A DNA stretch of 63,965 nt, filler included, from Reclinomonas americana ATCC 50394 (taxonomy: Eukaryota), in assembly GCA_048213135.1 (NCBI GenBank). It is 6 parts of 3 records of this genome, joined end to end, with 100 filler letters (N's around TTAATTAATTAA, not from the genome) between each part and the next. Parts side by side here need not be neighbours in the genome. Positions count along the whole stretch, not along the records: positions 1 to 31,907 come from PS015298.1; 5 more parts are not named here. The stretch is one strand, 5' to 3'. The translations under genes were made by a program, and so were the position numbers. Under the pieces are notes generated by a model, which was given only the letters and a program-made list of their open reading frames with translations, searched no databases and was not told the origin of the DNA. Positions 12,110 to 63,965 of this stretch are shown here, piece by piece. The first letter of the stretch is position 1; every line of letters begins with the position of its first letter.

Positions 12110-15100
12110 ATGGCTGACTTGGAGAACGGCTATCAGCAGGCGACCACGCAGCAGCAGCATGAGAGCACTCGCTTGCTCTCCTCCAGTGTCCCGCGCTCTG
12201 CACAGTTACGCGCGCGTGTGCATGCAACACACACCTATGCAACATTCACTGCTCATTGCTCTCCACCACAGTGTGACGTGGGCCGATGATCGACACATGT
12301 TCCGACGGCCGCCTATTGACTCAGGCACGCACACACACACACTCTCTGTGTCGCGACTTGCTCTCATTCGCACATTGCACAGATGACGAAGACGATGATG
12401 ACAGCAGCATGCTGGAGCCAGAGGAGGAAGAAGACGAGACCTCGTCCACAGCCGGTGACGAGTCGTCATCACACAAGCCGCAGCCTGCAGCAGCAGCAAT
12501 AGCAGCAACAGGAGGAGATGTGGAGAGCAGCACAGCAATGCCTCCTCCTGCACTCGTCGCTCGCCCACGCGGATCATCGCTGTTGGTCAGTCGCTCACTG
12601 AGTCACCCTTGCGCATGCTGTTGCTCACCTCTCTCTCTCATGACAGCGCTCGCCTGGAGCACCTGGCAACGGTGCATCGACGACGCTGAGTGACTCGGAT
12701 AGTGCGCCGTCGGCGGCGAAACGAACGCGCGATCGCACGGCCTCGTTTTACGCCATGCAGCCGGAACAAATGTCGACGCTGCCGTCGTTCAAGGTCGTGC
12801 AGCACGTGCGTGGCAACAAGGTCAAGATGGTGCACGATGATCGGTCTGTCCGTGTGTCGCCTTCCACAGGTTTTCGTGTGCTTGCAGGCGATGACTGACT
12901 CGTTCTCGTGCAGGGCGGTGCGTGTTGGCGATGGCGATCGTCCCTCTCCTCTCCTTTCCTCTTCCTCTTTCCTGCCGACGCGATTCTGTGATTTGCGACC
13001 TACCCTCTCCCACTCTATTCGCTTTAACATTCCACTTTCCTTCCGAGCGATTCTGCAATCGTCGTGACCTCTCCTCAGTCATTCTTCTCCCTTTCCAGTT
13101 CTACTGACGCGATTCTGTGACTCGTGGCCTCTTCAATTTCCTGTTTCCGGCGACTAGAGTCTGTGTCTCGTGACCTCTCCTCTCCCTCTCTTCTTTCTTC
13201 CTCTTTCCTGCCGACGCGATTCTGTGATTCGCCACCTATCCTCTCCCACTCTTCTCCCTTCCTCTTCCACTTTCCTTCCGAGCGATTCTGCAATCGTCGT
13301 GCTCTCTTCTCAGCCACTCTTCTCCCGTTCCAGTTCTACTGACGCGATTCTGTGACTCGTGGCCTCTTCGATTTCCTGTTTCCGGCGACTAGAGTCTGTG
13401 ACTCGTGACCTCTCCTCTCCCTCTCTTCTTTCTTCCTCTTTCCTTCCGAGCGATTCTGCAATCGTCGTGCCTTCTCCTCAGCCACTCTTCTCCATATGCC
13501 ATTCTCATTCCTTCCAACGTGATCTGTTATTCATCGTCTCTTTCCCCCCTGTTATCCCCGTCCCTTCCCCCGTCCCTTCCCCCGTCCCTTCCCCCCTCAT
13601 TCTCCCTTTACCTTCCCTTGTCCCTTCCCCCGCCCCTTATCCCTGCCCTCGTTGTTATCGCAGCTATTCTCCGTCTCCAAGCCGTTCTACTACGGCATCC
13701 TTCGCGGCCTGGGCTTGTGGGTGCCGGAGACGACACGTGTGCGCCTCTTCCTCTTCCTCACCCTATTCCTGCTGATCTTTGCGTGCTCCGGCAACATTGT
13801 CGGCATTATTCTCTTCAAGGAGAAGCAATTTGAGAAGGTGAAGATGGGGTGTGCGCCAGTTCTCTGCGTGTACCTTGCTTCTCATGGTCCGTGCAGTTTT
13901 ACAACATTGTTCGTGTGGCATTCTTGTTTGCGTCGGTGTTTTTCGCCATCACGTATCTGCGTTGCGTCGGGGGGTTCTTGTGCATAGCATGCGGGTCACC
14001 TTGTCGTCTCATCGCTCATTTGCCTGCACAGCCTCGAAGAACTGGCGACGACTGATGCAAGAGGCGGTCTATTCCGGTGCGTTGTTTGTCAGTCTGATTC
14101 CCCTGACCTTGTACTTACTTCTGCTCCCACAGACATTGTTAAGACCCGAAGGCACCTCAACGCGTCTGTTATTCTCGCCGTCGTGCTGCTGATCTTTGCT
14201 GTCGCCATTGACATGCCGGTGTGGATCTCGTACATGGAGGAGGAGGACATTTCCACGGTGTGGCTGGTGTGGCTGACCATTACCGGGTGCGTTGTTCACG
14301 AGAACGCCTCTCTTTCCATCTGCTCCCATCACCGCTAACTCTCATTCCACTTGCCAGCCTCTTCTTCCACGTCTACATGGTGCGAAACGTCCTGCCACTG
14401 TTCTTGGATTTCTCTTTTTCCCCCTCCGCTCACCTTGCCGCTTGTCGCAGTCTGCTGGATCGGCCATTTTTGTGGCAGTGTGCCTGCTCAAAGTCCTCGA
14501 GTGGGACAAGATGAATGAGCGCATCGCCAAGCGGTCGGAGCATGAGTCTGAGGTGAGAGAAAAGAACGAGCTCCTGTCCCCCTCATATGCTGATCTTCGA
14601 CACAGAAAACCATGATGGAACACAGTGCGCGCACTGCTGCGCTGAGTGACACCAACAAGAGGGTGGAGGTGTATCTGGCGCTCAACTTTGTAGCCTCACT
14701 ATCGCTCCTGGTCGTTGGTGCGTGTGGGAGAGAGAGCGACGAGAGGGCAAGAAACCTCACTGTCGTTTATTGCAGAGGTCTACGGCCTGGTGAGCGACTC
14801 GGCAAGCCATTTTGTGTGGTCCATGCGTTTTGCCCACACGTTGACGCTGACGATGCTGCCACTGTTGCGTGCATCACCTTTGCCTTGGCGGCCGTCGTCA
14901 AGAACTCATCTGTTCTTTTTCGTCTCCCCGCGAAACAGGCTGGCCGCAGGCTATGTCACCGCCCGAGCCTCCAAGGTCAGTGCGTCATAGTGCTGTTGCG
15001 GGAGATGCAGTATGCGCTCACTCTCTGCTGCAGGGCCGCAAGATGATTGCCCGCATGCGTGCGCACGCCGAGACTGAGGACGGTCGGAAAGGCCTGCAAG

Positions 15101-15329: not shown

Positions 15330-18300
15330 CTATACACGTTGGCCGCTAAAGATAAGGAAAAGCGCAGACGCCAGCGCTAGAAGGCTGGCAAATATCTGCA
15401 GGGAGAGGTGCCAGTGAGTCGAGAGCCACCCAACTCCCATCCCACAGCTCATCACTCACCCAGAACTGCCTCTCGCGTTCCACCACGTACTGCCGGTGTG
15501 ACTGACGCTCCTGTAACAAGCGCATCTCCGTCTGCTTCACCACGCCAGCCACCTGATCCAACAAATCGCAGTCGAGTGCCACCCGCTGCGTACGGAACGC
15601 CTCGTCGATGGAGCCCATTCGCTCACGAAGGCGGTCCAGATCGTGACGCAGATGATCTCGCTCCTCACCGACGGCGGCAAGATTCCGGTCGACTTCTCCC
15701 TTGCCCGCACGCAGTCGAGCAAGCTGCTGGTTCAGTTCTTCGAGCTGACGGCGCGTGGCCACTTGACTCTCCTGCAGGTGTTTCTCCGCGTTCTGCTTGT
15801 CGCCTTCGAGACGTTTAACCTGCTTCTGCGCCTCGCGGTCCGCCGCCTCCGCCTTGGTCACTTGGTCCGCCAGCTGCCGCCTCAGGTCTTGCTCACTCGT
15901 CTGCAGAGTGGTGACCCGAGTCGCGGCGGTGCGGAGATCACGGTCCATCTGCTGCAGGCGTGCGTCGACACGCTCGAATTCTGCCTGCGCCTTCTCGGCG
16001 GTTTCGCGCGCCGCGGCCAGCTCGGCCTCGAGCTCTCCGATGCGTCGGTTGAGAGTTTCGACCTGCGCCGCCTCTGGTAGGACACGCTCGGCGCTCTCCC
16101 GGAGCTGCTTCTCGAGGGCCGCCACACGGGCCGCCATCTCCTCCAGCCGCCGAGCGTCCTCCTTCCCCTTCCGCTCCGCCTCTGCATGCTGGCGGCTCGC
16201 CTTGCCGGCCGCAGCGTGTGCGTCGGCGTGTGCCTTGCGCAGCTGGTCGTTGAGTTCGTTCGTCTGCTGCTCCAGCTCCGCGACGTGCTTACGCAGTGCC
16301 TCGTCACCACTCGAACTCTTGGTCGTAGACATGGCAGCCGCCATCGCCGACTCGGCCAGAACGGCCGCAAATCGCTCCTGCTCCTTGGTCAGCTGTGCCT
16401 TCGCCTCAAACACGCGGCTTTCGGCCTCCACCTTGGCCGCCTCCACCTCCCGCTGCGCGCTGAGAACATGCTGTTGAACCTCGAGCAACTCCTTCGCGTG
16501 CTGATCGGTGAGAGACCGCACAGTGCTCTCCCGTCGTGCATCGGCCGCCTCCACCTGCTGTCGCAGCATTTGAACCAGCTGCTGCTCGTCGGCAAACTTG
16601 TTCTGCGCGTCGATGAGCTGGTTCTGAGCATCGGCCAGCTGCTCGGCGGCGCTGCTGGCCTTCTTCTGCGCCTCGGCGACTTGCTTGTGGGCATCCTCCA
16701 GTTCATGGCGAGCGTGCCTCAAGTCGGCATCGACGCGTTCGAGATCGCGCTCTGCCTGCGCCAGTTTGGCGCTGACCGTGTCAATCTCCGCCAGACGCGA
16801 GGTGCTGCCGGCCCTCAACACCACCAACTCCTCCCTGGCCTCGCGCAACTGCGAGCGCGCATCGGCCAGCTCCGCCTGCGCCTGCTCTGATGCGTGTGAT
16901 GATGGCGCCGCTGGGGACGCTACTGATGAAGATGATGACAGCTCGTCGACTTGCGACCTCAGCGCATTGACCTTGTCCTGTTCCTCCTGCAGTACATGCT
17001 GCAGGGCTTCCACTTGCGCAGCACGGGAAGCAATCTGACACACACGCAGAGGGACGGTGAGATCAAGAGTAAGCAGAGCAATAAATAGGAGATGCACACC
17101 TCTCGCTTCAGTGCCTCCTCGCGCTCGTGGAACTTTGCCTCAGCCTCCGTCAACCGCTTCTCGCCCTCGCCTACTCGTCCCTCGGCTTGCTTGAGATCCG
17201 ACTGTAGTTTCTCGCAGGCAGCCTTACTGCGAGCCAGCTGCTGCTCGACCTCAGCCAAGTGCCTTGACGTGTTGTCCTGCAAACAAAAATGTCACACCCT
17301 TGCGCACGCCAACGGACATGACAAAAACACTCACCTTCTCCGCCTGCGCATGGCGCACCTGTTCCTGTGCGTCGCGCGCCTGCTTCTCTGCGCGTTCCAG
17401 ATGGGCGCTCTTGACGCGCAACTCGTCCGCTTGGTCCGCCTTCGACTTTTTCACCTGGTCCAGTTCGCCCTCCAGCTGCTTCACACGCTGCTGCGATGCA
17501 TCCAGAGCCTGCTTTCTGGCCGACGCCTCCACTACTCCCTTCGTCTCCGAGTCGATCTGCAGTTGCTGAAGTTTGCTAAACTTGTGCTGCTCCTCTGACA
17601 GCTTCCGTTGCAGCCGCTCCACAGTCGACGCATTGTCGGACTCCACCAAAGCCAGCGCACGACGTGCCTCCAGGAGCTCACGCTCCCGCTGTTCAAGTAA
17701 CGCCGACAATTCCAAGTACTTTTCCATCGCCATTTCCAACGCCTCAGCAACTATGGACGGACGGATCATCGGATAAGCAACAACAACTGCAACAACAGTC
17801 GACTTCGCTTGAGCGAGTCGCACCTTCAGCCGGCACGGGCTGGTCTTCGTCAGCGTCCACCACAGCAGATGCGGAGGACGCGCCGTCACAGTTACCATTC
17901 TGCATCGCGGCACCTGTGTTCGCGTGAGGTGAGCGGGCGGCGAGACGCAAACTCTTGCCAAGCAATTGCACGCAACTCATCGAATCGCTAACATGATCTG
18001 CGACACAAGTGTGTGAGCAGCTGCGACAATGTAACACCGAGCAGCACGAGCACTCACCAACGATCCGAGTGCCCAACATGGCGGAAACGTGGTCCACACT
18101 TGACTGCATGTCGGACACCAGCGATTTCGGTGATGAAGGTGGCGATCTGGCACTGTCGTCGACTGTTGCTGCTGCGGAACGAGATTCGGGAGACGCAGCG
18201 GACGCTGCGGCAGAAGCACTCGAAGCCTTGCGTCGGTGAGCCTCGGAGACTCGCGACATGTCTTGCAGCAGTGCTGTGGCCTGTTGATAGCCGGCCGACA

Positions 18301-20364
18301 CCTGCTGTTCCATCGACTGCAGGCGGCTGCGTGCGTCCTTCAGTGCCGACTGACTGGCTTCCAGCTCGCGCTCCAAGTCTCGAATGCGCCCAACTGCCAC
18401 CTCGGGCGTCAATGGTGTTCCCTTGCTGTCGGATCCAGTAAACAGCTGCAGATGCACAATCATGTTATTGACTTGTGCGTTGCGTTAGGAAGAACGAACA
18501 CAGTCACGCACCACATTCGTCGACTTGATAGGAGTTCGGAACTCATCCTGCGTCACGCACACACACACACATATGAGCAACTCGAAGACACGCGAACACC
18601 GAGAGAGATACAAACGCACCGGGAAGAGACTGGATCCAGACTGAGGAACAGTGTACGCAACGCGCTGCTCACTGAGATCTTGCTCGGGGCTGGACACTTG
18701 CGACACATCGTGCGTGTGCTTTTGCAACAGCTTGTCGACGGTCGAGGAGATCTTGTCGATGCGCCTGCACGAAGATCACCGGTGAGAGGTGAGCCGAACC
18801 ACTGGCAAACGGGGATTTTGCACAGTGACGAAACGCAAGAGGTGACGACGGCAGTGGAACCACGTCGGTCAACTTGGTCACTTGGAGCAGCTTGGTGAAC
18901 TTGTGGCACAGCTTGTCCATTCGCGCAAGCAACTGCGACGAATCATCAGCGGGTAGTCGTACAAAATGTGACGCGACACGAGAGTACTCACCCGCTCCGA
19001 GTCGGCATCCAGCACGGACGACGACGACGAGCCCGGGGTGCCGATCGACTCGTCGAGATCCGTCACCTCCAGACCGCGACTGGACGAGTGCAAGCTGCTG
19101 TCATCGTCGGCCACAGATGTGGCTGACGACTGCGCCAGAGGCACCTCCTGGAAGTTGCCGCTGCCCCACGCCGACTCTGCAACCTCCTCCATCAGCTCGC
19201 TCTCCAGCGAGCCACGTAGCGCACCGTCCATGCGCGATGCCGTGAAATCGTACACTGAAGTCTGACGCGCGTGGTGCGCAGCACCCTGCTTGTCCCTCGA
19301 CACGTTGAGGCACGAGAACGAGAGAGAGAGAGGAAACACAAACACAGCGGGGCACGCACCATCATCGACATGCTTCGTGTCAGATCCGAATTCGTCTTGT
19401 TCAACTTGGCAATCGTCTGCGACGCGACCTCCAGCTTTTGCTGCAGATCCTCCACCACCATCTGCATCACCTCCTGTGACTTGATCTCCGTCATCTGCGA
19501 TCGCTCCGTGTACGCGGTCAGGCCGGCGACATCGGCCACCTCCTCCTGCACCCACCCATCGGCGTTCCTCTCCAGCTCCGAGCTCAACATGCGGAACTTG
19601 ATGTACAGCGCCTCCAGATCGCGATCGAAACGTGAAATCGAGTGCGGTGTGCCCGGAATGCGTGGTGAGGAGGCAGTGCTGGGTGATTGCGGTGGTGTGG
19701 AGGGGAGCTGGGAGAGGGAGAGGGGGAGAGGGGAGAGAGAGCGGGAGAGGAAGAGGATAGGAGAGGAGAGGAGAGGAGAGGAGAGGGAGAGGGGAGAGGG
19801 GAGAGGGGAGAGGGAGAGGGAGAGGGAGAGGGAGAGGGAGAGGGTGAGGGTGAGGGAGAGGGTGAGGGAGAGGGAGAGGATGCGGGAGAGGGTGAGGGAG
19901 AGGGAGAGGGTGAGGGAGAGGGAGAGGGAAGAGGGAGGGGAAGGGAAAGGAAGGGAAGGGAAGAAGGAAGAGGGAAGAGGGAAGAGAGATAAAGAGAAAG
20001 GGAAGGAAGAGAGAGAGGGAGAGAGAGAGGAGGGACACACAAACACGCAGAGGGATGAAGAGGGAGAGGAGGGGGAGAGGGAGCGATTCAGTCGAAATGA
20101 GAGACACTCAGAGACGCGCGCGCGCAAGAGGCACACCTCGCTGGTCGGTGTGGATCCCATCCACGAAGGAGTCGACGATCGACTGGCCAGCTCCGACAGC
20201 GTCTCACGCAGCGTTGAGATCTTGGTCATCGCCTCCAGAATCTGCCCGAGACTGTTCTCCAACACATGACCGAGACGAGTGCGTGGCGATCGACCATCGC
20301 TCAAACTCGCAGTGCTCACTCCGCGTGGCAGCGAGAGAGTGGGCACAGTCGGCGGGCGACTCAT
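15330..20364 (-). CDS. Long coiled-coil protein with C-terminal transmembrane tail anchor (paralog A; golgin-like architecture)
   Basis: Multi-exon heptad-rich ORFs (15346-17097, 17251-17961 and others). The last intron (tgg|gtgagt...cag|) yields QFW-IFASLLALASALFLIFSGQRV*. N-terminal exons are homologous to paralog B. Confidence 0.7.
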
Positions 20365-21280
20365 TGCTGCAAAGAGAAGGGAGAGAGTGTGTGTCAGCGC
20401 CTGTCATCATGCACTTCAACGTGTCAATGCCAATTGCACATGCGTGTTTGGTGTCACAGAGTGTCGCACTTCTCTCTTTTCTCCCCTCCCTCTCTCTCAC
20501 CCGCTGTCGTCGATGTTGCGTCCACTGAAATCCCGACATGACACGATAACGACGCAGAGGAACAAAGGACGAATATGCACTGACAATAGCGAGGAGGCGG
20601 AGAGAAAGAGAGGGTGCATACACACGCTGATATCGCACACACATGTGCACAGTGCAGCACAGAGAGAGAGAGAGTGAGTGCATGAAAGAGAGAGTGCGCG
20701 GGAGAGACATCGCGCGCGCGCGCGAAACATACCAGACTTTCTGCGTGTGCGAGCCTTGTGTATTCTTCGCCTCACCTACAGGTGCACACTCTTTCCTTTC
20801 CGCAGTGTGAACGAGCGTACACGCGGTCGCTTCTCCGTCGTAAAAAAGGGATGGCGGGACATGCATCGACACAGGACGACGGCTCTCTCAAGTTTCCTCG
20901 GTTTTTATGACGTGCACCAAAGACAGCATTAACATCACGGTCGCGAGGGCGACTCGAGACTGCACCCGGCATGCAAAGAGACTGCTCCGTACCCCTGCAG
21001 ACAGGAAATCACCGCAGTTGGGTGGCTCGTAAATTTAAAAGAGGGTCTACGGTGTCCACATTCACAGGCGCTTGCGTGACCAGGTGCTCATGATCGCGAT
21101 CGCGGGGCTTAGAAAATCGTTCTTCAGGTGTTCGGGGCCGGGGCCACTGACCTCCAAAAAATCTGCGGGGACAAAGAGTCCCGCTGCGCTCGCAAAGGCA
21201 ATTGTCTCCCCTATTGTTGTCGTTGGAGCGAAGACCGTCTCGCTCTTCTACGTGTGTGCCTTTTCCCCCTCTCGCGAAAA

Positions 21281-22299
21281 ATGTCCAAGCCGCGTATATC
21301 GTACTTTTACGACTGTTGCGTCGTGTGCGTTGTAAATTGCAATTGCAGAGCGCGCGGCACTGCGCTTTTGTTTTGTGTGCGCGTTTGCCATACTGTATCT
21401 GTGTGCGTCGTGCGTGGTGTGAGTGTGTGAAGCCTGAAGAATTCAAGGAGCTTGCCGCCGAAAGAAATTGAACAGTTGTTTATTCTTTATCCCGGCCCCA
21501 ACCTCTCCCAGTCCCCTTTCTCTGTCTTCCTTCCCCTTGACTTTCGCTGGGTTCTGCCCCTCTCCGTGTACCCCTCCTTTCTTTTGTGAGGGTTATGCTC
21601 ACTTGTCCGAATTCAACATTTTAAATTTGCAGCCGCGATTGGAAACTTTTACTATGGCCAAGGCCACGAGATGAAGCCGCACCGCATTAAGATGACACAC
21701 AACCTCGTCCTCAACTACGGCCTGCACAAGAAGATGGCGGTGTATGTTGCGTTTTCACCACCAAACCATTTCGCTTTGCTTTCTTTTCCATCCTTTCACG
21801 TTCTCACTGTCGCTTGCAGAGACCGCACTTGTCGACGGAGCAAGAGCTCACCAAGTTCCACACGGACGACTACATTGACTTCTTGCGGCGAATCTCGCCC
21901 GAGAACATGCAGGACTTTTCGCGGCAACTCAGCCTCTGTTGCGTCCCCTCCTTTTTTTCTCCTCTCCCTCCCTCTCTTATCCTCTCCCTCACCTTCACCG
22001 CCTCCTCCGCAGTCAATGTGGGCAACGAGTGCCCGGTCTTTGACGGCCTTTACGAGTTTTGCCAGATTTGTGCTGGCGGCTCAGTGGCCGGTGCGGTCAA
22101 GCTCAACACGGGCCAGTCTGATGTGCGTTCCACCTTGCATTACACACCCCTTTGCGCCTCCTCTCTCACAATGACGTCATCGCAGATTGCCATCAACTGG
22201 GCCGGTGGTTTGCACCATGCCAAGAAGGCTGAGGCATCGGGTTTCTGCTACGTCAACGACATTGTGCTTGGCATCTTGGAGCTGCTGAAGTTGCGTCTA

Positions 22300-22343
<44 letters not shown>

Positions 22344-22759
22344 GTACTACGTACTACCGTCCGTTCGTTCGTACACGCGAGACACACGAGAGAGAGAGAG
22401 AGTGAGTGCATAGAAGAGAGTAGTGCGGGGGAGAGACAGCGCGCGCGCGCGACGAACTACACGAGTACTTCTCGTCGNNNNNNNNNNNNNNNNNNNNNNN
22501 NNNNNNNNNNNNNNNNNNNNNNNNNNNNNNNNNNNNNNNNNNNNNNNNNNNNNNNNNNNNNNNNNNNNNNNNNNNNNNNNNNNNNNNNNNNNNNNNNNNN
22601 NNNNNNNNNNNNNNNNNNNNNNNNNNNNNNNNNNNNNNNAACGTACGGTACGGACGGTACGTCGGTTTCGTTCGTCGTACGTACGTAACCGAACGTAACG
22701 TTAGTTGTCGTTCGGTCGTACGTCGTTCGGTAGGTACGTCGTCGTCGTAGTGTCGTCTC

Positions 22760-22812
<53 letters not shown>

Positions 22813-24295
22813 TTTGCCCGGCTGACTCATCTCTCTCTCTGTCTCTTGTGTGTGCGCAGGGTGCATGCGCGTGTGCTGTACATCGACATTGACATTCACC
22901 ACGGCGACGGCGTGGAGGAGGCGTTCTACACCACCGACCGCGTGATGACGGTGTCGTTCCACAAGTTTGGCGACTACTTCCCCGGCACGGGCGACATTCG
23001 CGACGTTGGTGCCGGCGTCGGCAAGTACTACTCGCTCAACTTCCCGCTGAACGACGGCATGGATGACTTTAGCTACGAGAACATTTTCCGGCCGGTGCGT
23101 CAACCCTCTCCCCTCGTCTCTTTTTCTCCCATCTCACGCTTCACAGGTCATGCAACGTGTAATGGACTTTTACCAGCCGGGCGCCGTCGTGCTGCAATGT
23201 GGTGCCGACTCGCTGACGGGTGATCGCCTCGGCTGCTTCAACTTGTCGCTACGCGGCCACGCCGACTGCGTTGAGTTTATGAAGTCGTTCAACGTGCCGC
23301 TGTTGGTGCTCGGCGGTGGCGGCTACACAATACGCAATGTGGCGCGTTGCTGGACCTACGAGACAGCCGTGCTGTTGGGCCAGGAGATCTCGGATGGTAT
23401 GTGTGTGTTTGTCTTTCTTGCTTGCATGGATTCGTGCTCACGCTGGCGAGCAAANNNNNNNNNNNNNNNNNNNNNNNNNNNNNNNNNNNNNNNNNNNNNN
23501 NNNNNNNNNNNNNNNNNNNNNNNNNNNNNNNNNNNNNNNNNNNNNNNNNNNNNNNNNNNNNNNNNNNNNNNNNNNNNNNNNNNNNNNNNNNNNNNNNNNN
23601 NNNNNNNNNNNNNNNNNNNNNNNNNNNNNNNNNNNNNNNNNNNNNNNNNNNNNNNNNNNNNNNNNNNNNNNNNNNNNNNNNNNNNNNNNNNNNNNNNNNN
23701 NNNNNNNNNNNNNNNNNNNNNNNNNNNNNNNNNNNNNNNNNNNNNNNNNNNNNNNNNNNNNNNNNNNNNNNNNNNNNNNNNNNNNNNNNNNNNNNNNNNN
23801 NNNNNNNNNNNNNNNNNNNNNNNNNNNNNNNNNNNNNNNNNNNNNNNNNNNNNNNNNNNNNNNNNNNNNNNNNNNNNNNNNNNNNNNNNNNNNNNNNNNN
23901 NNNNNNNNNNNNNNNNNNNNNNNNNNNNNNNNNNNNNNNNNNNNNNNNNNNNNNNNNNNNNNNNNNNNNNNNNNNNNNNNNNNNNNNNNNNNNNNNNNNN
24001 NNNNNNNNNNNNNNNNNNNNNNNNNNNNNNNNNNNNNNNNNNNNNNNNNNNNNNNNNNNNNNNNNNNNNNNNNNNNNNNNNNNNNNNNNNNNNNNNNNNN
24101 NNNNNNNNNNNNNNNNNNNNNNNNNNNNNNNNNNNNNNNNNNNNNNNNNNNNNNNNNNNNNNNNNNNNNCACAGAACTTCCCTACAACGACTACTACGAG
24201 TACTTTGGCCCCGACTTCCGCCTCCACATCACACCCACCAGCATGGAGAACATGAACACATCTGACCAGCTGGAAAAGTACAAGTTGCGTACCTG

Positions 24296-24348
<53 letters not shown>

Positions 24349-25145
24349 CTTGGATGATGATACCATATTACATCACTGAAAATCTTACCTTACCATAAGA
24401 CAAAACCGTGATGGGAGAATAGGTCAACTGACGCACTCGTGCTCTCTCCTCCTTTCCTTCTTTTCTCCACTGTTTCTGGCTGCGAGTTGTTTTGCTTACT
24501 GTTTACTGCGCACACGTGCAGGATCATTCTGATGGAGAACCTCCGCAACCTGCAATGCGCCCCCGGCGTGCAGATGCACGAGGTGCCGCCAGACACGTGC
24601 TTTAGCGAGGAGGAAGAGGACGAGTTTGATCCGGAAATCCGTGACCCTCGTTGCGTTTNNNNNNNNNNNNNNNNNNNNNNNNNNNNNNNNNNNNNNNNNN
24701 NNNNNNNNNNNNNNNNNNNNNNNNNNNNNNNNNNNNNNNNNNNNNNNNNNNNNNNNNNNNNNNNNNNNNNNNNNNNNNNNNNNNNNNNNNNNNNNNNNNN
24801 NNNNNNNNNNNNNNNNNNNNNNNNNNNNNNNNNNNNNNNNNNNNNNNNNNNNNNNNNNNNNNNNNNNNNNNNNNNNNNNNNNNNNNNNNNNNNNNNNNNN
24901 NNNNNNNNNNNNNNNNNNNNNNNNNNNNNNNNNNNNNNNNNNNNNNNNNNNNNNNNNNNNNNNNNNNNNNNNNNNNNNNNNNNNNNNNNNNNNCTCGCTC
25001 TCTGTGTGTGTGTGCGTGATGAATCCCCCCATGCCCATCGCTGGCTTCTGTCACATGTGCAGTGCGAGACGAGCGAGTCGTTCGCGACGAGGAATTCTAC
25101 GATGGTGACGACGATCAGGATCACGACTTCCTCGATCGCATCTGA
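21281..25145 (+). CDS. Class I histone deacetylase (RPD3/HDAC1-3 family), 10 visible exons
   Basis: [122 protein letters not shown]-terminal [11 protein letters not shown]. Confidence 0.97.
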
Positions 25146-25976: not shown

Positions 25977-28900
25977 TCATGCATGCCCGTTAGCCTGCGG
26001 AGTCACCTCCGGCTCCACCACTGGCTCCACCACTGCCGCAGCCGTCACCGTCTCGCTCACGGGAGGCGCGACGTCGACGCTCTCCACCTGCTTCCCGTCC
26101 GCCAACTGCACCTCCAGCTCGGCGGAAAGTGCCTTGGCCTGGTTCACCTGCTCCTTGGCGGCCTTTAGCAGCGTTCCCAGTTGCTGCCGCTCGCCAAAGG
26201 CCGTGACCGCCAGTCGCGAGGCTTCGGCCAGTTGAGCACCGAGGTCGCTGATGCGCACCTCGGCTTCGTCGACGTTGAGTTTCGAGCGGCGATGCTTGAC
26301 GGCGTCGAGCTGCGCGGCCACCTCCTTGCGCTCGTCGTCGGCCTTGGCCACTCGTCGGCCCGACTCCTCGGCCAGCACACCGAGCGCATCGGCGACCAGC
26401 TTGAGCTCCTTCAGCTCGTCACACGTCGTGTCCAGCCGCAGCGCCAGCTCTCGCCGCTTGTCTTCGGCATGCGCGCGCAGGCGATTGTGTTCGGCCACAT
26501 GCTCCGCGACCGTCACATGCGCCTCGTGCAGAGCCTCCTGCAACTCGTTGATCTGGCGCTCCAGTTCACGCGCCCGCTCTTGCGCGTCGTCCGCCGCTGC
26601 ACTGCGTCGTTCCAGCGCGGCCGCCAGCAGTGCCGAGTCCGTCACCGTCACCGCCGCCACCTCTTGCCACTGATCGGTGAGCACCGTGAGATGTGCAACG
26701 CGCGCCGCCTCCTCCCGTTGCTGCGCCGTGACCGCCTCCAGCGCCACGTCCTTGGCGCGGCTGGCGTCCACCTCCACTGCCAGCGACTGTTGCAAGCGAT
26801 CAATCTCGCCAGCCAGCTCCTGCTGCCGCTGCTCCGCCATCTGCTCGCTCTGCCGCCACTGCTCCTCCATGGCTTGCAACTGGCGCGCGAGCTCGGCGCG
26901 CTCCGCCTCTGTCGCCGTCGCACACTTGTTCCGCTCGTCCAGCTCCGCTTGCAACGCCACCGCACGCCCCGTGGCGTCCTGCAGCAGTGTGACCATGCCC
27001 TTGCGCTCCTCCTCGGCAGCCGTCAGCCGCCGGTTTCCCTCTTCCACCTGCGCCAGCAGGTCGCCAACTCGGGCTTCCGTGTATCGCAGTCGCGCCGTCA
27101 GCTCGCCGCGTTCGACTCCCACGCTCTGCGCGTCTGCTCGCGCTGCCAGCACCTGCTGCTCCAGGTCGACGACTCGTGCACGCAGAGCCTCGTCCCCGCC
27201 GATAGTGGACACGTCGCTGGCAGTGGACCTGGACTGCGACAGCATGCTGGCAAAGTGTTCGTGCTCCGCGGCCATCTGCGCCATCGTGTCCCGAAGACGA
27301 CCTTCGACCTCTGCTTTGGCCGCCTCCAGCTCCCGCTGCGCGCTGAGCACCGCCTCCAGCGCCTCGCTCTTGACGCGACCAACCTCTTGCGCCGCCACCG
27401 CCTCCTGCTCGAACTGTCGTCGCTGTTCTTCGCACGCCAACAACTGGCGGGCGAGCTCGGTGCGCTCCGCCTCGGCGGCATTCGCGCATTTGTTCCGCTC
27501 GTCGAGTTCCGCCTGCAACGCCACAGCGCGAGTAGTGGCATCCTGCAGCAGCGTGACCATGCTCTTGCGCTCCTCCTCGGCGGCTGTTTGCCGCCGGTTT
27601 CCTTCCTCCACCTGCGCCAGCAAGTCGCCGACACGCGCCTCGGCGTACCGCAATCGCGCGGTCAGCTCGCCACGCTCACTCTCGCCGGCGGTCTCTGCCG
27701 CAGCAGCGCGCTGCGCGCTCTCCTCCACGGCGACCTGCAACGCACTGATGCGAGCCTCGGCCGCCTCCAGTTGAACGGCCAGGTTGACACGCGCAGTCTC
27801 CGCCGACTCCGCACCCTTCTTCGACTCCTCCACCTCGACCTGCGCAGCGGCCACCTTTTCCTCCACGCCCCGCAGTTGGAGTGCCAGCTGTGCGCGCTCG
27901 TTCTCAACCGACGCCGCTCGCTTGCCAGCCTCCTCGGCGTCGGCTTGCGCCGCAGCCGCCCGTCCAGTGGCGTCTTTGAGCAGCGCCACAAGCTCTTTCC
28001 TTTCATCCTCTGCTGCACTCACTCGCTTGCCGGCCTCCTGCAGCAGCGCTTGCAGCTCCGCAATGCGTGCTTGATAGTTGACTCGCTCCTCGTCCATGGC
28101 AGACAGCATGCGTCGCGCCTCTTGGACATCGGCACTCGCCAGCTTATCCGCCACTTGCAGCTTCGCGAGCGCCGCCTCCCTATCGCTCTCCGCAGCGGCG
28201 GCCCGCGCGGCCGACTCGGCTGCGCGCGTCTCCGCATCGAGCACACGTCGCGTGAGTTCGGCACTTGTGGTTTCAGAGGCACTGGCACGCTGCTTGGCAT
28301 CCTGCAGCTCCGCTTGCAGCGCCGCCACCGCCACACTGGTAGCCCCTCCGTCGACGCCGTCGAGTGGCGACGCTCGAGCTTCCGCATCCACCAAGCGGCG
28401 CATCATCTCCGACCGCTCGCTTTCTGCGGCGACGGCACGCTCGCTGCACTCGTCTGCTCGTGCGACGAGCACCTGCCGCTCCATTAGCATCGTGGCCAGC
28501 TGCTTTTCGAGCTCTGCAATCTGCGCCCGACTGCGTACTCCCTCGTCCTCCAACTCGTGCCGCCGCTGCTCTGCCTCCGCAATGTGTCGGCTGACCTCGG
28601 CAGCGCTTTGCGCCGCATCGGCCACCGCCTTGCGCAACGCCTCCTGCAACTCGCCCAGTTGACGCTCAAACTGTCCCGCGCGGCGCTCCGAACTGGCGGC
28701 GCTTGTGGTGCTCAGCTCCTCCAGAATACGAATGTGATCCACGAGCTGCTGTACGCCGGCACTTTCGTGACCGTGCCAGGCCTCGGCCGCCACCAGCGCC
28801 TCTCGTTTCTGCTGCGCGTCAGCGGCCGTAGCTTCCAGCTGTGCACGCAGAGCGCTCACTTCGGACTGCCAGTGTACCACCACCTCGGCATGCTCGCCAG

Positions 28901-31900
28901 CCAGCTTGCGCGTAGAGGCCTCGTGGCGCGCATCCGCCTCGGCCACTTGCACACGCAATGCGTCGGCGGCACTGCGCATGTCACTGAGCTCGGCGCGAGC
29001 AGCGGCGAGATCGCGATGCGCCTGGGCCAGTCGCGCACTCGCCGTGTCGATTTGCGCCACGTGAGCCGCCGTCGTTGCTCGCAGCACCACCACCTCACCC
29101 TCCGCCTTGTGCAAGCGCGCACGCACATCCTCCAGTTCATCGACCGACGCCGTCGGCAAGGCCAGGCTGTCAGCCGATGGTGAACGCAGGAGGTGTAGTT
29201 CTGCCGCCTGCAATTCCTCTACCCGCATTCGCAGCTCTGCCGCCGCCGCGCGACCCTCGGCCGATTCGGTGAGGAGCTGCTCAATGTGCCTCTCCAGACG
29301 ATCGAAGCGTTGCGCGGAGACCAGTTTCTGATGAAAGGAAAAGCATTTGTCAGCAACAAATTTTCTGTGGTTGGAAGACGATCGCCACGCACATCATCCT
29401 CGGCCGTGCGCACAGCCCGCTCGAGTTCCGCACGCAGCCGCTGGACTTCGTGGTGCGCCATCTCCAACTCTCGCTCCTTGTCGCCGATATCACGCAGCAG
29501 GGCCTCCACACGGTGTGAGCACTCGACTTCGTTGCGACGCATATCCTGCTCCAGATCGGCCAGCTCGTGCTCCAGGCTCTCCACAGTGACCTCGAGATGA
29601 CCAATGCCATCGGCAGCAACCAGTTTCTGACAAACCAAACTCAAAAATGTCAGCTTCTCGACACCGAGCACAGAGTGGAAACGACTGCGCACCTCTGCTT
29701 GCGCGGCGGCGAGAATGCGCTCAAATTCCGCTTGCATCTTGCGTGCCGTATCGCGCGCCACAGCCAGCTCAGACTCGAGATCTCCAATGTGCCGGTTGAG
29801 CGTCTCAACGTGCGCCGCCGCTGTAGCGTCTCGTTCCAGTGCATGCCGATCTGACTTTTCACGCTCGGCGCTCTCCCGGAGCTGCTTCTCGAGGGCCGCC
29901 ACACGGGCCGTCATCTCCTGCAGCCGCCGAGCGTCCTCCTTCCCCTTCCGCTCCGCCTCTGCGTGTTGTCGGCTGGCCTTGCCGGCCGCAGCGTGTGCGT
30001 CCGGTGTGTGCCTTGCGCAGCTGTTCGTTGAGCTCGTTGATCTGCTGCTCCAGCTCCGCGACATGCTTGCGCTGCGCCTCGTCACCACTCGAATTCTTGG
30101 TCGCCGACACGGCAGCCGCCATGGCTGACTCGGCCAACACAGTCGCAAATCGCTCCTGCTCCTTGGTCAGCTGTGCCATCGTCTCACGCACGCGGCTTTC
30201 GGCCTCCGCCTTGGCCGCCTCCACCTCCCGTTGCGCGCTGAGCACCTTTTGCAGAACCTCGAACAACTCCTTCGCGTGCTGATCGGTGAGCGAACGCACA
30301 GTGCTCTCCCATCGTGCATCGGCCGCCTCCACCTGCTGTCGCAGCATTTGAACCAGCTGCTGCTCGTCGGCAAAGTTGTTCTGCGTGTCGATGAGCTGGT
30401 TCTGAGCATCGGACAGCTGCTCGGCGGCGCTGCTGGCCTTCCTCTGTGCCTCGGCGACCTGCCTGTGGGCCTCCTCCAGCTGGGCGTCGACACGTTGGAG
30501 ATCGCGTTGCGCCTGCGCGAGTTTCGCGCTGACCGTGTCGATCTCCGCCCGACGCGAGGCGCTGCCGGCCCTCAATACCACCAGCTCCTCCCTGGCCTCG
30601 CGCAACTGAGATCGCGCATCGGCCAGTTCTGCCAGCACGGTATCGGTAGCGCCGTTGGTGGCCTGGGCGACGGGAGAGAGAGAACAACGAGACAAAATGA
30701 GTAACTTTCACCACATGGTAAAGGAGAAAACGATCAGTGTCCACCTGCGCGCGTTTGTTTGCCTCCCGTGACTTGTGGCTCGGTGCCGCCGACCCGTTTT
30801 CCACATCGGTCGCCTTTTGCTTCAACTCATTCTCGGCGAGCAGGCGTCGTCGCGTGGCCTCGATAATCTCCTGCTGCAGCTCGTCGCGGTCCTTCTCCAG
30901 CCGCCTCACCCGCTTCTGCGCCGCCTCCAGTTCGTGCTTGGTGGCCGCCATTTCCGCTGTGCCGTCCACGGCGGCATCGCTCTGCCACCGCTGCAGCTCC
31001 TTGAGTTTGAGGCGCTCCTTGCGCAGCGACATTTGCATGGTGTCCATTATGACGGTCTTTTCAGCGTTCGACGCCGCCAGCGCACGCCGAGCCTCGGCCA
31101 GTTCCTCGTCGCGCTTCTGCAGCAAGCTCGCGAGCTCGCGGTGCATCTGCATGGCTGCTTCCACTGCCTCCACAACTTTTTGGCGAGGGAAGCGCGATGA
31201 GAACGACGGCACAAACAGTGGTGGCGACGGGAGGCATACCTTCCGCGGGCAACAGCGCGTCGTGATCAGCCGCTTGCGCAGCAGCCGAAACAACAACAAG
31301 AGGGGGAGGAACATCGATGGAGACAATGTGCTGTTCGACGGGTGAAAGTTGCGGCGAGGCGTCTGCAGCAACAAAACATGAGTGAAGGATATATTGTGAC
31401 AACAGACGAGTTCGCGCAACGGAGCGACTCCTCGACATGCTCTGCAGTGGAGGGAGGGAGAGGGTCAGCGTGAGAGGGAGAGGAGGGGAGGCGATGTGAA
31501 GCGACGGTGACGCACGAATGACATGCTGCGAAAGCATGTGGGAGACCGAGTGGACCTTGCTCGACACACGCGATACGAGCAACTCGGAGGACTCGGGAGG
31601 TGGAGACACGCGTCTTTCCTCACTGGCACCAGCTGGTTGCCGTCGAGTAATTTCGTGAAGCAGCGCAGTTGCCTGCTGCCAGCCTTGCATCAGTTGTTGC
31701 TCCGCCAGGTGCAGACGCTGTCGGGTGGAGAAGAGCGAGGCCTGGCTGGCCTCCAGTTCCATCTCCAGTTGGTGGACTCGGGAGGCGGTGGGGTCGGAGA
31801 TCTTTGTACGGGCAAAGGGGTAAGAAGAGGGAGGGAGGGAAGAGGGAGGGAAGGAAGAGGGATGGGGGAAGGGTGCAGGGTGAAGGGGAGAGGTGAAAGA

Positions 31901-60652: not shown

Positions 60653-63600
60653 CGAAAGTGCGCCCCAGCAATGCCTTGTAATCATAGAGCGTGTCGGCCG
60701 AAGACTTTTCGTGCCGGCGGCGACTGACATTGCCGAGAATCCACCGACCCGTGGTACACGTGACACAGTTGGCAATGCATGGGGCCTGCACACCGCAGCG
60801 GTCAACAACACGAGTTGCACGAGTGTGAATATGGCCAGACAACTCAACTGCATCCTCCTGCAGCATCACAGGCTGTCCCGGCGACGCCACTGTCGTATGG
60901 CGCAGCACCGACTCTGACAAGTCAGGCTCCCAGAACTCGGCTCCCTTCGGCACCATCCGCCACGCCTCTCGCGCCTCTCTCAACTCCTCCTCGTACGCCT
61001 CCTCCGACTCATCATCATCTCCATCATCATCATCATCATCGTCATCGTCGGCACTCGAGTGCGCATCGGTCGTGGCCGCATCAGTGACAGAGTGAGTTGT
61101 GTCTGCCGCCCCGTGCTGGTGGCGGTGACTGTGCCGACGCGTCTCTCGCCACTTGCGCAACTCGCCAATCGACACATGACACATCACGTAGCAGCGCAGC
61201 AGATCGGTTCCAAAGTCGATGCCCACATAGCCCCGATGCTCACCAGCCGCCGCCGCACTGATGATCCCCGGCGGCGCGGCACTGTCGGCGTTCATCACAC
61301 GACAAGGGGATAGAGGACAGAGGCGAGGACGCGAGCACATATCCATGAAATTCACTTTGGCTTTCGCGCGCCTTACAAAAGTCCATCACCGTATCTCACG
61401 TGCGATCTGGATCCGAGATGGCTGCCGGATCGGAACTGACTTCGATCGGCGGTTCAGGGGCCACGACACCCGACGCCGAGCCGCCGCCCGCCACACCACC
61501 GTCCTCGTCTGCGGCGTGCACAATCGAGCTGAACGATGCGAAGCCCTCGGGTGCGCCAAAGCTATCAGGGGGAAGGAAGGAAGCAGAGAATAAGTACGAC
61601 GCGTACAATTATTCGGACGCTACAGCGGAGGGGAAAAAACGCAACACAAATGGTTGGTCGCCGAAATTGATGCGCGCCTGTTGTCGCCTGCCAAAGGTCA
61701 CCGCCGGGCAGTAGTACTCGTGGTGTGAGAGAGGTGCGCCACTGAACGCCACGGGGCTCTTTGTTCGTCGCCTCAACAGCGGTTGACCGTTCTTGAAGAA
61801 GAAGATCTCGAGAGTGTCCACATCGATACCGCAACCAATCACATCGCCCGGAACCGCCGGTCGCCCATCCAGATACTCTCGTTTCTTGCCGCTAACGGTG
61901 CGGCCACGGAACACCTCAAACGCAAACGAAAGTGGGTCGTCGCCGAGCTCACCGTCCTCCTCCAGCACCTCGCACTCGAGCGACGCGAATCCGCATCGCA
62001 GGTGCTCCACATTGTCGAGGACCACCTTGGCGTCGCACGAAGAGAGGTCAGCAGAGAAGTGCGAAACTCTTGTTCTCTCTCTCTCTCTCTCTCACTCTCT
62101 CTCTCATTCACCTCGTAGTAGTATCGGCCAGCACTGGCGAAACCCGTGTATAGTACAGACTGAGAGATGGGCGCGTCGTTGCGGAAGTGCAAGCGCGACG
62201 GAATCATGTGCAGGAGACCGCTGAGTTTGCAGTGATGCGTGCTCTCCTCCGAACCCACATCTGTCGCCACCCCGGGGGTGAGTGCACACAACAACAGATG
62301 ACGCCAAGAGATTTCATCGATGACGCACCAGTCTCTAGCATGCCGGTGACCCATTCCGCACAAAACTCCAGACCCTTGTCGTCGATGCCTTCACGGTGCA
62401 GACGGTCGCGGAACTTGGAAATGGTCGACTGCAACGAGGAGGAGCGCATCCGCTCCTTTACCGTTTCTGCGAACGCAGTGAGCAGAGAGAAACGACCGGA
62501 AGCGGCGACCACGCGGCACGAATTCATCATGAGCTCACCGACGGTGGCGAGGAAACCCAGCGTGTTGATGGTGTTGATGAGTGTTGATGCATCCGACTCC
62601 GCCGCCAGTGTTTCGGCGAAGCGTTCAATCACTCCTTGTTCCGACATGTTGCGGCACGCCTCACCCGCTACAACAGCCAATCAGTCTACCAGTCATTCGC
62701 TGAAACGCAGCACACAGCTGGCACAACGTACCTCCGACAGCAATGTCGGCGAGAAGGAGCGTGGCGTCCCGTCGGTCGCTGACCTCGGCGGAGGAGCAGA
62801 GTGGCGCCAGGTGCTCTCGCCACAGCCGTCCAAAGTACCGATCTGCGCAGGGAGAGCATAAGTGACGAGCTCGGTGTTGACGAACAAGCGAGCGACACAA
62901 ACACACTTACCATCCTCGGAGAGTTTGGCCAGCGCCGAGAGTGCCAGATGGCGCTCTGCGGCGTCGGTGCGTCGTGCGTACGACACCAACGAGGCGATCG
63001 CATTGGCCTCGACCAGTGCGTCACGTACTTGAAGAGCTGTGGTGCGCGTCAAATGCACGCACAAACGGTAAATGGTGACGGTGAAACGCAACACACGAGG
63101 GTCAACTGCGCGAGCACACTGCACGCAAGCAGGTCGTTGCCACTCTGACCGTGGAGCGACAATTCCACAAGCGATTCGATTCCGTGCTCGTCCATCAGCT
63201 TGATGGCGTACATGTCTGGCAAGGCGCACACACACGGCTGAGAAGAGAAACAAGTCGCGGTTGTGCCACCCCCCTACGAAACTGGTACTCGACAGATAGT
63301 ACAGAGCAATGAGCGCGAAGCGAATGGCGTCGGGTTCGCGGCACGTCACGATAATGTGCAGCAAATGCCGAATGCCACCACTGTCGTGAATGATTCGTGC
63401 CGCTCCCTCTGCGAAGACGTCGACGACAATGGTGTGAGAAGTGGGGGAACACACACACACACAAGTGCATGCACAGACCATGCATGGCCATGTTCATGAG
63501 AAGCGAGGCCGAGTCGACCACGGCCTTCACTTCATCGGAACGCGCACCGGCGTACACCTTTTGCACATCGTGACTTTCGAGAATGTCGTGCAGCAGCGCC

Positions 63601-63965
63601 TGGTTCTCGTGATCCTCTGAACAGAGAGCACAAGTAAGCTTTCCAACGAACTGTGCAATTACAAGCACTGGAGCAGAACACACCCTGCCGATACACATTC
63701 TCCAGCGTGTGCGAAATGGCGGCAAAATTGTTCGCGCGAATGTTGTAAATCAGATGCGCGCAGACGGGCGATTCGAGCACCTTCAGGCGGCGAGACCTGC
63801 TCAATTCAAGCATGCCCTCAACCGTGTCGTCGAGGGAGCGACTGGGAAGCAAATTGATGTCGGGTGGCTGCACGAAGACATTGGAGATGAGGAGGAAGCA
63901 ACACACTGAGATGTGAAAGACACAAACCGAAATCCATGAATGCTCCAGCGCTTTTTCCAGGGTAA
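60653..63965 (-). CDS. RSPRY1-like ARM-repeat + SPRY protein fused to an Hsp70-like NBD (partial at both ends)
   Basis: ARM-like GGIRHLLHII...FALIALYYLS and LALSALAKLS; LEFCAEWV; SPRY GRYYYE|VVL...LRCGFA...LGDDPLSFAF...GDVIGCGID...FFKNG...PAVTF...NFGDQPFV|F; then in frame GYVGIDFGT...DYKALLGRTF. Confidence 0.8.

Follow-up and report, generated by a model that had tools for sequence, protein, structure and literature searches.

Introns in a stretch of 63,965 nucleotides (nt) of Reclinomonas americana ATCC 50394 (NCBI GenBank assembly GCA_048213135.1; six parts of three records joined end to end, hereafter the window) start with a 5' splice site (donor) that belongs to one of two classes, and the class is linked to the last base of the preceding exon. 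Unshifted donors such as g/GTGCGT (the slash marks the cut, small letters the exon) mostly follow G, whereas shifted donors, typically GTTGCGT, carry the motif one base further into the intron and nearly always follow A, C or T. Shifted donors were defined by T at +3 together with G at +6 and a base other than G at +5. The link is real and far beyond chance.

It was established on 122 donors from 16 model pieces, built with a gene finder whose donor score was equal for both registers and blind to the base at -1 and then corrected by hand for open reading frames; each junction was placed by homology of the protein and by its frame. The window is intron-dense DNA with many assembly gaps, and its introns are short (median ~69 nt). 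Sites that were too uncertain (42911, 42740, 42679, 39155, ~46138, 44337, 44153, 11403, 12918 and the region 12844-12917) were excluded. Thirty-seven of the 122 donors were shifted, 34 of them after A, C or T and three after G, and the other 85 comprised 78 after G and seven after A, C or T. An earlier reading of this DNA, made from the sequence only, had stated both halves of this rule and had proposed a contingency test of the -1 base against donor class; run on the curated, homology- and frame-based donors, this test bears it out (Fisher p = 7.6e-20). The association persists within each intron phase, when repeat copies are collapsed (n = 115, p = 3e-18), when only donors lacking a close alternative are counted (n = 98, p = 1e-15) and in 500 random re-picks of frame-compatible donors that took no account of the -1 base (worst p = 5e-8). 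It also holds for 19 donors regarded as fixed by conserved families, with one shifted donor after G and 11 after A, C or T, against six and one unshifted (p = 0.002); nine of these are histone deacetylase donors aligned blind, three are actin donors with support from PDB numbering and the remaining seven were placed by what we take to be motifs of their families. The word GTTGCGT occurs 32 times in the window against 10.7 +/- 3.1 times in shuffles, and 23 of the 32 occurrences are curated donors, compared with none of the 30 occurrences of GTCGCGT, GTAGCGT and GTGGCGT.

The gene for a class I histone deacetylase (HDAC) has both donor classes side by side, as the sequence-only reading had pointed out, with six shifted and three unshifted donors (Table 1). 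Its spliced product is 81% identical, without gaps, to the HDAC of Seculamonas ecuadoriensis (P0012) and 74% identical to that of Andalucia, and it was placed as sister of the Seculamonas protein in a quick tree of 61 rows (Shimodaira-Hasegawa-like approximate likelihood ratio test, SH-aLRT, 99), from which four of 65 rows, odd or chimeric-looking, had been dropped. A spliced aligner that used a profile of 64 other HDACs and no donor motif, only GT or GC and AG, returned exactly the nine modelled junctions. The six donors starting with GTTGCGT are preceded by T, T, T, A, A and C, and the three unshifted donors by T, G and G. In a separate scoring, the model was better than all frame-compatible alternatives at eight of the nine introns. 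Other organisms' HDAC contigs depart from the window at 22290/22291, a weak signal. A cut one base further in was rejected because it would change R50 into G and F89 into C: the residue after intron 2 is R in 54 of 64 homologues and G in none of the listed states, and the codon split by intron 3 encodes F, as it does in 57 of 64.

As a control, 80 metagenome HDAC loci were analysed with the same spliced aligner. Introns were found in 50 of the 80 loci (90 introns, of which 65 distinct). No shifted donor occurred among the 65 distinct introns of these other eukaryotes, and all 20 control introns after a base other than G retain G at +5. One locus, L009, has six intron positions in common with the HDAC gene of the window, with normal donors, and is of use as outgroup for the ancestral positions. 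For five of the six shifted HDAC introns, other eukaryotes have an intron at the same position, with an unshifted donor that follows a base other than G. These shared positions with normal donors elsewhere indicate that the shifted donors arose in place from old introns.

In the TIG-repeat gene, introns at the same position of the repeat units change class with the last exon base. The phase-1 donors at the repeat junctions are g/GTGTGT (633), a/GTTGAGT (1113), t/GTTGCGT (1684), a/GTTGAGT (2208), t/GTTGCGT (2797), g/GTGTGT (3301) and g/GTGAGC (4240), and all seven phase-2 introns of this gene follow G and are unshifted. When the TIG units were aligned to each other blind to the motif, all 12 donors tested were the most frequent calls. 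The minus-strand region with eight evenly spaced phase-1 introns, presumably ARM-like repeats, has six unshifted donors after G and two in shifted position, a/GTTTCGT (63282) and t/GTTGCGT (63092). In the actin-like domain, the shifted donors lie at 55859 (after T), 55406 (A), 55175 (C) and 54425 (A), and the unshifted donors at 55770 and 54784 follow G; PDB numbering of actin is colinear across 55406, and the exons preceding 55175 and 54425 end at actin 173 and at actin 363 of 375, respectively. Homologue searches with the actin-like exon and the PIG-S exon gave no matches, and a search with the WD40 exon gave mostly generic repeats, the P0135 match spanning no intron.

The structure of the motif indicates what kind of shift this is. 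Thirty-nine donors have G at +6 in place of +5, and in 37 of them the base at +3 is T; the 37 shifted donors mostly have G at +4 (30), C at +5 (33) and T at +7 (33). Their base at -1 (A 14, T 13, C 7, G 3) is distributed as base -2 of the G/GT donors (A 32, T 29, C 13, G 4; homogeneous, p = 0.91), whereas the unshifted comparison differs (p = 8e-7). A and T are above codon expectation both at -1 of shifted donors (among bases other than G, p = 0.006) and at -2 of G/GT donors (p = 2e-8). The exon-side A/T bias thus moves with the motif, supporting a true +1 register, in which the whole recognition word including its exon side lies one base deeper and intron G+1 takes the place usually held by G-1, and not a bulge.

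Judged by sequence features, the shifted introns are U2-type GT-AG introns. They have GT...AG ends and restore the reading frame (gap-free in HDAC), the 36 mapped acceptors are CAG (34) or TAG (2), and a loose branch-point-like motif, YTVAY, lies 10-50 nt before the end of the intron (raw counts among short introns: 27 of 30 shifted, 55 of 70 unshifted; median 18-19 nt). In this motif and in their acceptors they are like the unshifted introns. U12-type introns have the donor RTATCCTT, and no donor of this type was found among the 122. A mobile family of the introner type was rejected as well: in 435 pairs, shifted introns had no similarity past the donor (mean score 13.4, as in other pairs, none reaching 30), and five of the six shifted HDAC positions are old.

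Pairing with U1 small nuclear RNA (snRNA) was calculated with a nearest-neighbour model only, using the standard U1 arm AUACUUACCUG as given in Table 2 of PMC4856993. On this arm the shifted donors pair with a mean of -1.4 kcal/mol, and none of the 35 compared does so more strongly than its counterpart lacking the extra T; loss of G-1 therefore gives standard U1 no reason to slide. With arms carrying A8 the shifted form pairs better in 31-35 of 35 cases, yet only 3-10 of 73 G/GT donors fit, and no single arm among 1024 11-mers and 1024 12-mers fits both classes above ~80%. Two-arm combinations identical except at position 8 (C or A), chosen post hoc, fit 64-69 of 73 G/GT donors and 28-32 of 32 shifted donors, and disfavour the exceptions to the rule (0-1 of 7 and 0 of 3). 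The shifted class is also the stricter one: at the A/C position of the motif, its donors have C in 33 and A in four cases, compared with C 34, A 32, T 15 and G 4 in the other 85 donors (p = 3e-7), whereas standard U1, with U5 opposite this base, would be expected to prefer A, especially when the duplex is weakened. The sequence-only reading had proposed that G+1 takes over the U1 pairing of G-1 and that one 7-mer, G[G/T]TG[A/C]GT, fits both classes. It is thus partly supported: the association and the direction of the shift stand, and a single 7-mer read by standard U1 fits poorly, given the duplex energies and the C excess and an exact match to the 7-mer in only 50 of the 122 donors.

We give about an even chance to the explanation that a variant U1 reads the shifted donors one base out of register (+1). 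These U2-type introns would have 5' splice sites in two formats. Format 1 (~70%), W-G/GT-R-N-G-t, would be read in the normal register with the exon G-1 opposite U1 C9, and the likely reader of format 2 (~30%), W/GT-T-G-C-G-T, would be a second, variant U1 snRNA with a 5' arm without C8, of the type ACGCAAC or ACGUAAC. In the predicted duplex, G+1 would pair with C9, U+2 with A8, U+3 with A7 and GCGU with positions 6 to 3, and from established knowledge the cut would still be made before GU, set later by U5, U6 and Prp8. The -1 rule would then be a partition, the normal route pairing better with G at -1 and the variant route with A, C or T. With such a partition old introns would have been converted in place, most simply via the gain of one T, as the shared intron positions suggest. 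More tentatively, the major spliceosome may possess two specialised U1 small nuclear ribonucleoproteins (snRNPs), one for G/GU in the normal register and one for shifted /GUUGCGU. That the U1 register is uncoupled from the cleavage site is plausible, and such uncoupling is reported in principle (PMC4856993, PMC11162779).

Several points weigh against a variant U1 and against the rule on which it builds. None of the splice junctions was confirmed by RNA: among 24 RNA-type runs compared with the window the best share was 0.10, and four RNA-type runs aligned to 21270-22295 at 80% gave only pieces of other organisms' HDACs and four spurious joints. At HDAC intron 9, and there only, the modelled donor (835.0) was slightly outscored by a GC donor lying 3 nt downstream (836.9). 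Ten of the 122 donors violate the rule. The shifted donors at 60652 and, as an uncertain case, 9463 had been named as the only exceptions seen after G, and a third exists, g/GTTGCGT at 59361. The 60652 junction also has what we take to be a match to an Hsp70 motif. The earlier list of unshifted donors after other bases holds in part: 22123 was recovered, 29392, 31515 and 32958 have to be added, and 42740 lacks support, since no frame is open there from the upstream exon while a/GTTGCAT at 42679 gives an open frame. Coiled-coil paralogues also speak against strict coupling, as -1 changed and no shift occurred between g/GTGAGT (18991) and a/GTGAGT (32958) and between g/GTGAGT (18057) and c/GTGCGT (31515); when the two paralogues were cross-aligned, called introns agreed with the model at only 3 of 6 and 3 of 9. 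The U1 arms were picked after the consensus had been seen, the energies ignore pseudouridine, U1C and Luc7, and of the 73 G/GT donors only 40 fit when the standard arm is combined with the fully complementary one, so not every two-arm model works. An Rfam scan of the window gave no U1 gene (0 matches). In human splicing assays, U1 pairing energy is reported as the least predictive score (PMC11732430), and C or U at +4 is described for several lineages that retain standard U1 (bioRxiv 10.1101/2022.06.08.495308).

A single standard U1 that slides by one base, with G+1 taking the C9 pair aided by U1C or Luc7-type proteins that demand G opposite C9, appears unlikely. It would account for G opposite U1 C9 in one of the two registers in 115 of 122 donors and for the exon-side bias that shifts along, and the +1 register is proven in humans (PMC4856993, PMC11162779); however, the standard arm never favours the shifted form, C exceeds A opposite U5, and the validated non-canonical registers in humans total ~1.5% of sites according to PMC4856993. 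We consider selection after U1 similarly doubtful. Here, the ACAGA box of U6, loop 1 of U5 and Prp8 would accept CGU at +5 to +7, either U+2 or U+3 being looped out, and U1 would merely mark the region, so that the shifted class would be a displaced version of the split between exon-strong and intron-strong donors. The anti-correlation this entails is seen in the final T of the motif, which is present in 33 of 37 shifted and six of seven unshifted donors after other bases than G (together 39 of 44), compared with 46 of 78 unshifted donors after G. For human STAT3, pairing of U6 in a non-canonical register has been suggested (PMC11162779), and U6, not U1, has been argued to set the cut (PMC11732430). 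Selection after U1 alone fails to explain the near-invariant T+3, the C excess and the moved exon-side bias, the last because U5 contacts are tied to the cut.

Very little speaks for a bulge register, in which U1 would pair normally at -1, +1 and +2 and the extra U would be looped out. Bulge registers were reportedly described by Roca in 2012. Registers with a bulge at +2/+3 are validated for 54 to 68 of 201,541 human sites (Tan 2016, PMC4856993, Table 3), and the window donors resemble them in one U seemingly inserted after GU. A bulge, however, needs G-1 and keeps its pair with C9, so G-1 should be favoured, whereas the shifted donors avoid it (3 of 37, where codon use predicts 12.8; p = 2e-4), and the bias on the exon side is seen at -1 and not -2. 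Least probable of all is an artefact or another origin (over-called T homopolymers, biased annotation, mobile introns or a cut one base inward): sequence by the gaps is noisy, one apparent 1-nt frameshift lies near 30000 and the donors outside HDAC are mostly hand-curated, but modelled exons contain H-GTG[A/C]GT in frame and without the extra T 12 times, both strands carry shifted donors (19 and 18), motif-blind aligners give the same donors, the introns have nothing alike past the donor and occupy old positions, and an inward cut would alter the conserved R and F. In every model, U6 meets donors without G at +5.

Shifted-register 5' splice sites with the consensus GUUAAGU were reportedly described by Roca and Krainer in 2009. 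The +1 shifted U1 register of atypical human 5' splice sites (PMC4856993, PMC11162779, PMC9311317, PMC6280755) resembles that of the window in that the consensus lies one base into the intron (G+6, T+7 and the exon-side bias are all displaced here), GU is kept at the cut and pairing in the normal register is poor. It differs in being confined to a small human subset, compared with 37 of 122 donors here, so the class is rare in humans and routine in the window; human shifted sites also have A opposite U5/U6 of U1 and pair well with standard U1, whereas the window donors have GC there and pair poorly (-1.4 kcal/mol). A precedent for U1 arms that co-evolve with donors is given by Entamoeba (AACAAAC with GUUUGUU) and Mastigamoeba (ACGUAC with GUGCGC; bioRxiv 10.1101/2022.06.08.495308). 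The window donors likewise depart from GUAAGU as a changed U1 arm would match, and share C at the fourth position with Mastigamoeba; unlike these organisms, which have the normal register, G+5 and one dominant motif, the window has two formats one base apart, with C or A at +5 in the shifted class. The two major donor classes AG//GUNNN and NN//GURAG (PMC11732430, PMC9803359 and a LUC7 preprint) share with the window an anti-correlation between exon-side G and intron-side strength, but they keep G+5 in a common register, whereas the intron-strong class of the window has it at +6 and 34 of the window's 41 donors after bases other than G are shifted. For the Andalucia genome, 134 introns in 107 of 864 genes for mitochondrial proteins are reported as all GT-AG (PMC7050145). 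A full-text literature search brought up no description of GTTGCGT as an abundant class of donor, as judged from titles and abstract starts and with older jakobid intron papers outside its coverage.

Edge cases of the classification are g/GTTCGT at 964 (+), with T at +3 yet G at +5, g/GTAGTGT at 34366 (-), with G at +6 and A at +3, and the a/GTTGCAT at 42679 (-), of shifted type without G at +6. One candidate GC-AG intron lies at 12325-12382 (+; g/GCACGC), and AAG acceptors were modelled in three introns (31802, 31176 and 62026, -). Modelled micro-exons are 55771-55785 (15 nt), 6055-6075, 17977-17997 and 31421-31441 (21 nt each) and 14358-14379 (22 nt), and 12914-12917 is a possible 4-nt exon. 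At 54291-57753 and 57870-59852 (-), a long protein of coiled-coil and low-complexity sequence carries the actin-like domain in frame at its C-terminus, with a WD40-like part, presumably EDC4-like, upstream across a scaffold gap; a fusion of WD40, coiled-coil and actin is possible. The repeat region, a SPRY domain and an Hsp70-like N-terminus appear by open frame to be one gene (60653-63813, -, and 60126-60569, +), of which the continuation (Pfam HSP70) lies on a small contig in opposite orientation, probably through a scaffolding error. Near 30000 (-), the coiled-coil gene at 25977-34588 has a one-base frame change relative to its paralogue at 15330-20364, which is probably a sequencing error. 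Imperfect tandem repeats of ~100-250 bp were seen by eye at 12950-13500, 33780-34330 and 46400-46960, two in long introns and one intergenic. A 12-base linker with stops in all frames lies between runs of 44 N at the contig joins (31952-31963, 36263-36274, 51616-51627, 57813-57824 and 60070-60081), and several gaps are flanked by noisy CGTA-type sequence; both are assembly features.

Table 1. Coordinates of the genes, introns and exceptional donors discussed in the text (positions in the window; L numbers are metagenome HDAC loci with an intron at the same position)
Feature	Coordinates	Strand	Remarks
Class I histone deacetylase gene	21281..25145	+	10 exons, 427 residues
HDAC intron 1	21315..21632	+	phase 1, shifted t/GTTGCGT; motif-blind alignment; L009 (ct/GTAAGA)
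HDAC intron 2	21746..21819	+	phase 0, shifted t/GTTGCGT; motif-blind alignment; L020, L046, L075 (unshifted, after C)
HDAC intron 3	21938..22012	+	phase 1, shifted t/GTTGCGT; motif-blind alignment; L009
HDAC intron 4	22123..22185	+	phase 0, unshifted t/GTGCGT after T, an exception; both alignments
HDAC intron 5	22290..22859	+	phase 2, shifted a/GTTGCGT; includes N gap; motif-blind alignment; L009, L073 (unshifted, after A)
HDAC intron 6	23095..23146	+	phase 0, unshifted g/GTGCGT; both alignments
HDAC intron 7	23397..24174	+	phase 1, unshifted g/GTATGT; includes N gap; both alignments
HDAC intron 8	24284..24521	+	phase 2, shifted a/GTTGCGT; motif-blind alignment; L009, L026 (unshifted, after T or A)
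HDAC intron 9	24650..25062	+	phase 1, shifted c/GTTGCGT; includes N gap; least secure of the nine
IPT/TIG-repeat gene	275..4246	+	Pfam TIG
Eight phase-1 introns	62328..63683	-	~42-residue spacing; open frame; no external homologue
Actin-like domain	54360..55859	-	Pfam Actin; four shifted and two unshifted donors
Exception g/GTTGCGT	9463..9525	+	open frame, no close alternative; no homologue
Exception g/GTTGCGT (59361)	59294..59361	-	open frame, no close alternative; no homologue
Exception g/GTTTCGT, Hsp70-like part	60646..60652	-	phase 1 suits next exon, which lies on inverted contig

G at +5 and the fixed registers of U1 and U6 are among the most conserved features of splicing, and here ~30% of old introns have this G at +6 instead, a change that goes along with the base at the exon end. 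If there are two U1 snRNPs, ~30% of introns would reach catalysis without G+5, and U6 would therefore have to engage them in a new register. Within the major spliceosome this would be a rare example of specialised snRNAs and, if true, a natural, genome-wide second 5' splice-site code. The introns would offer thousands of natural test cases for separating recognition by U1 from the choice of the cut by U5 and U6, and standard gene finders will mis-annotate this lineage.

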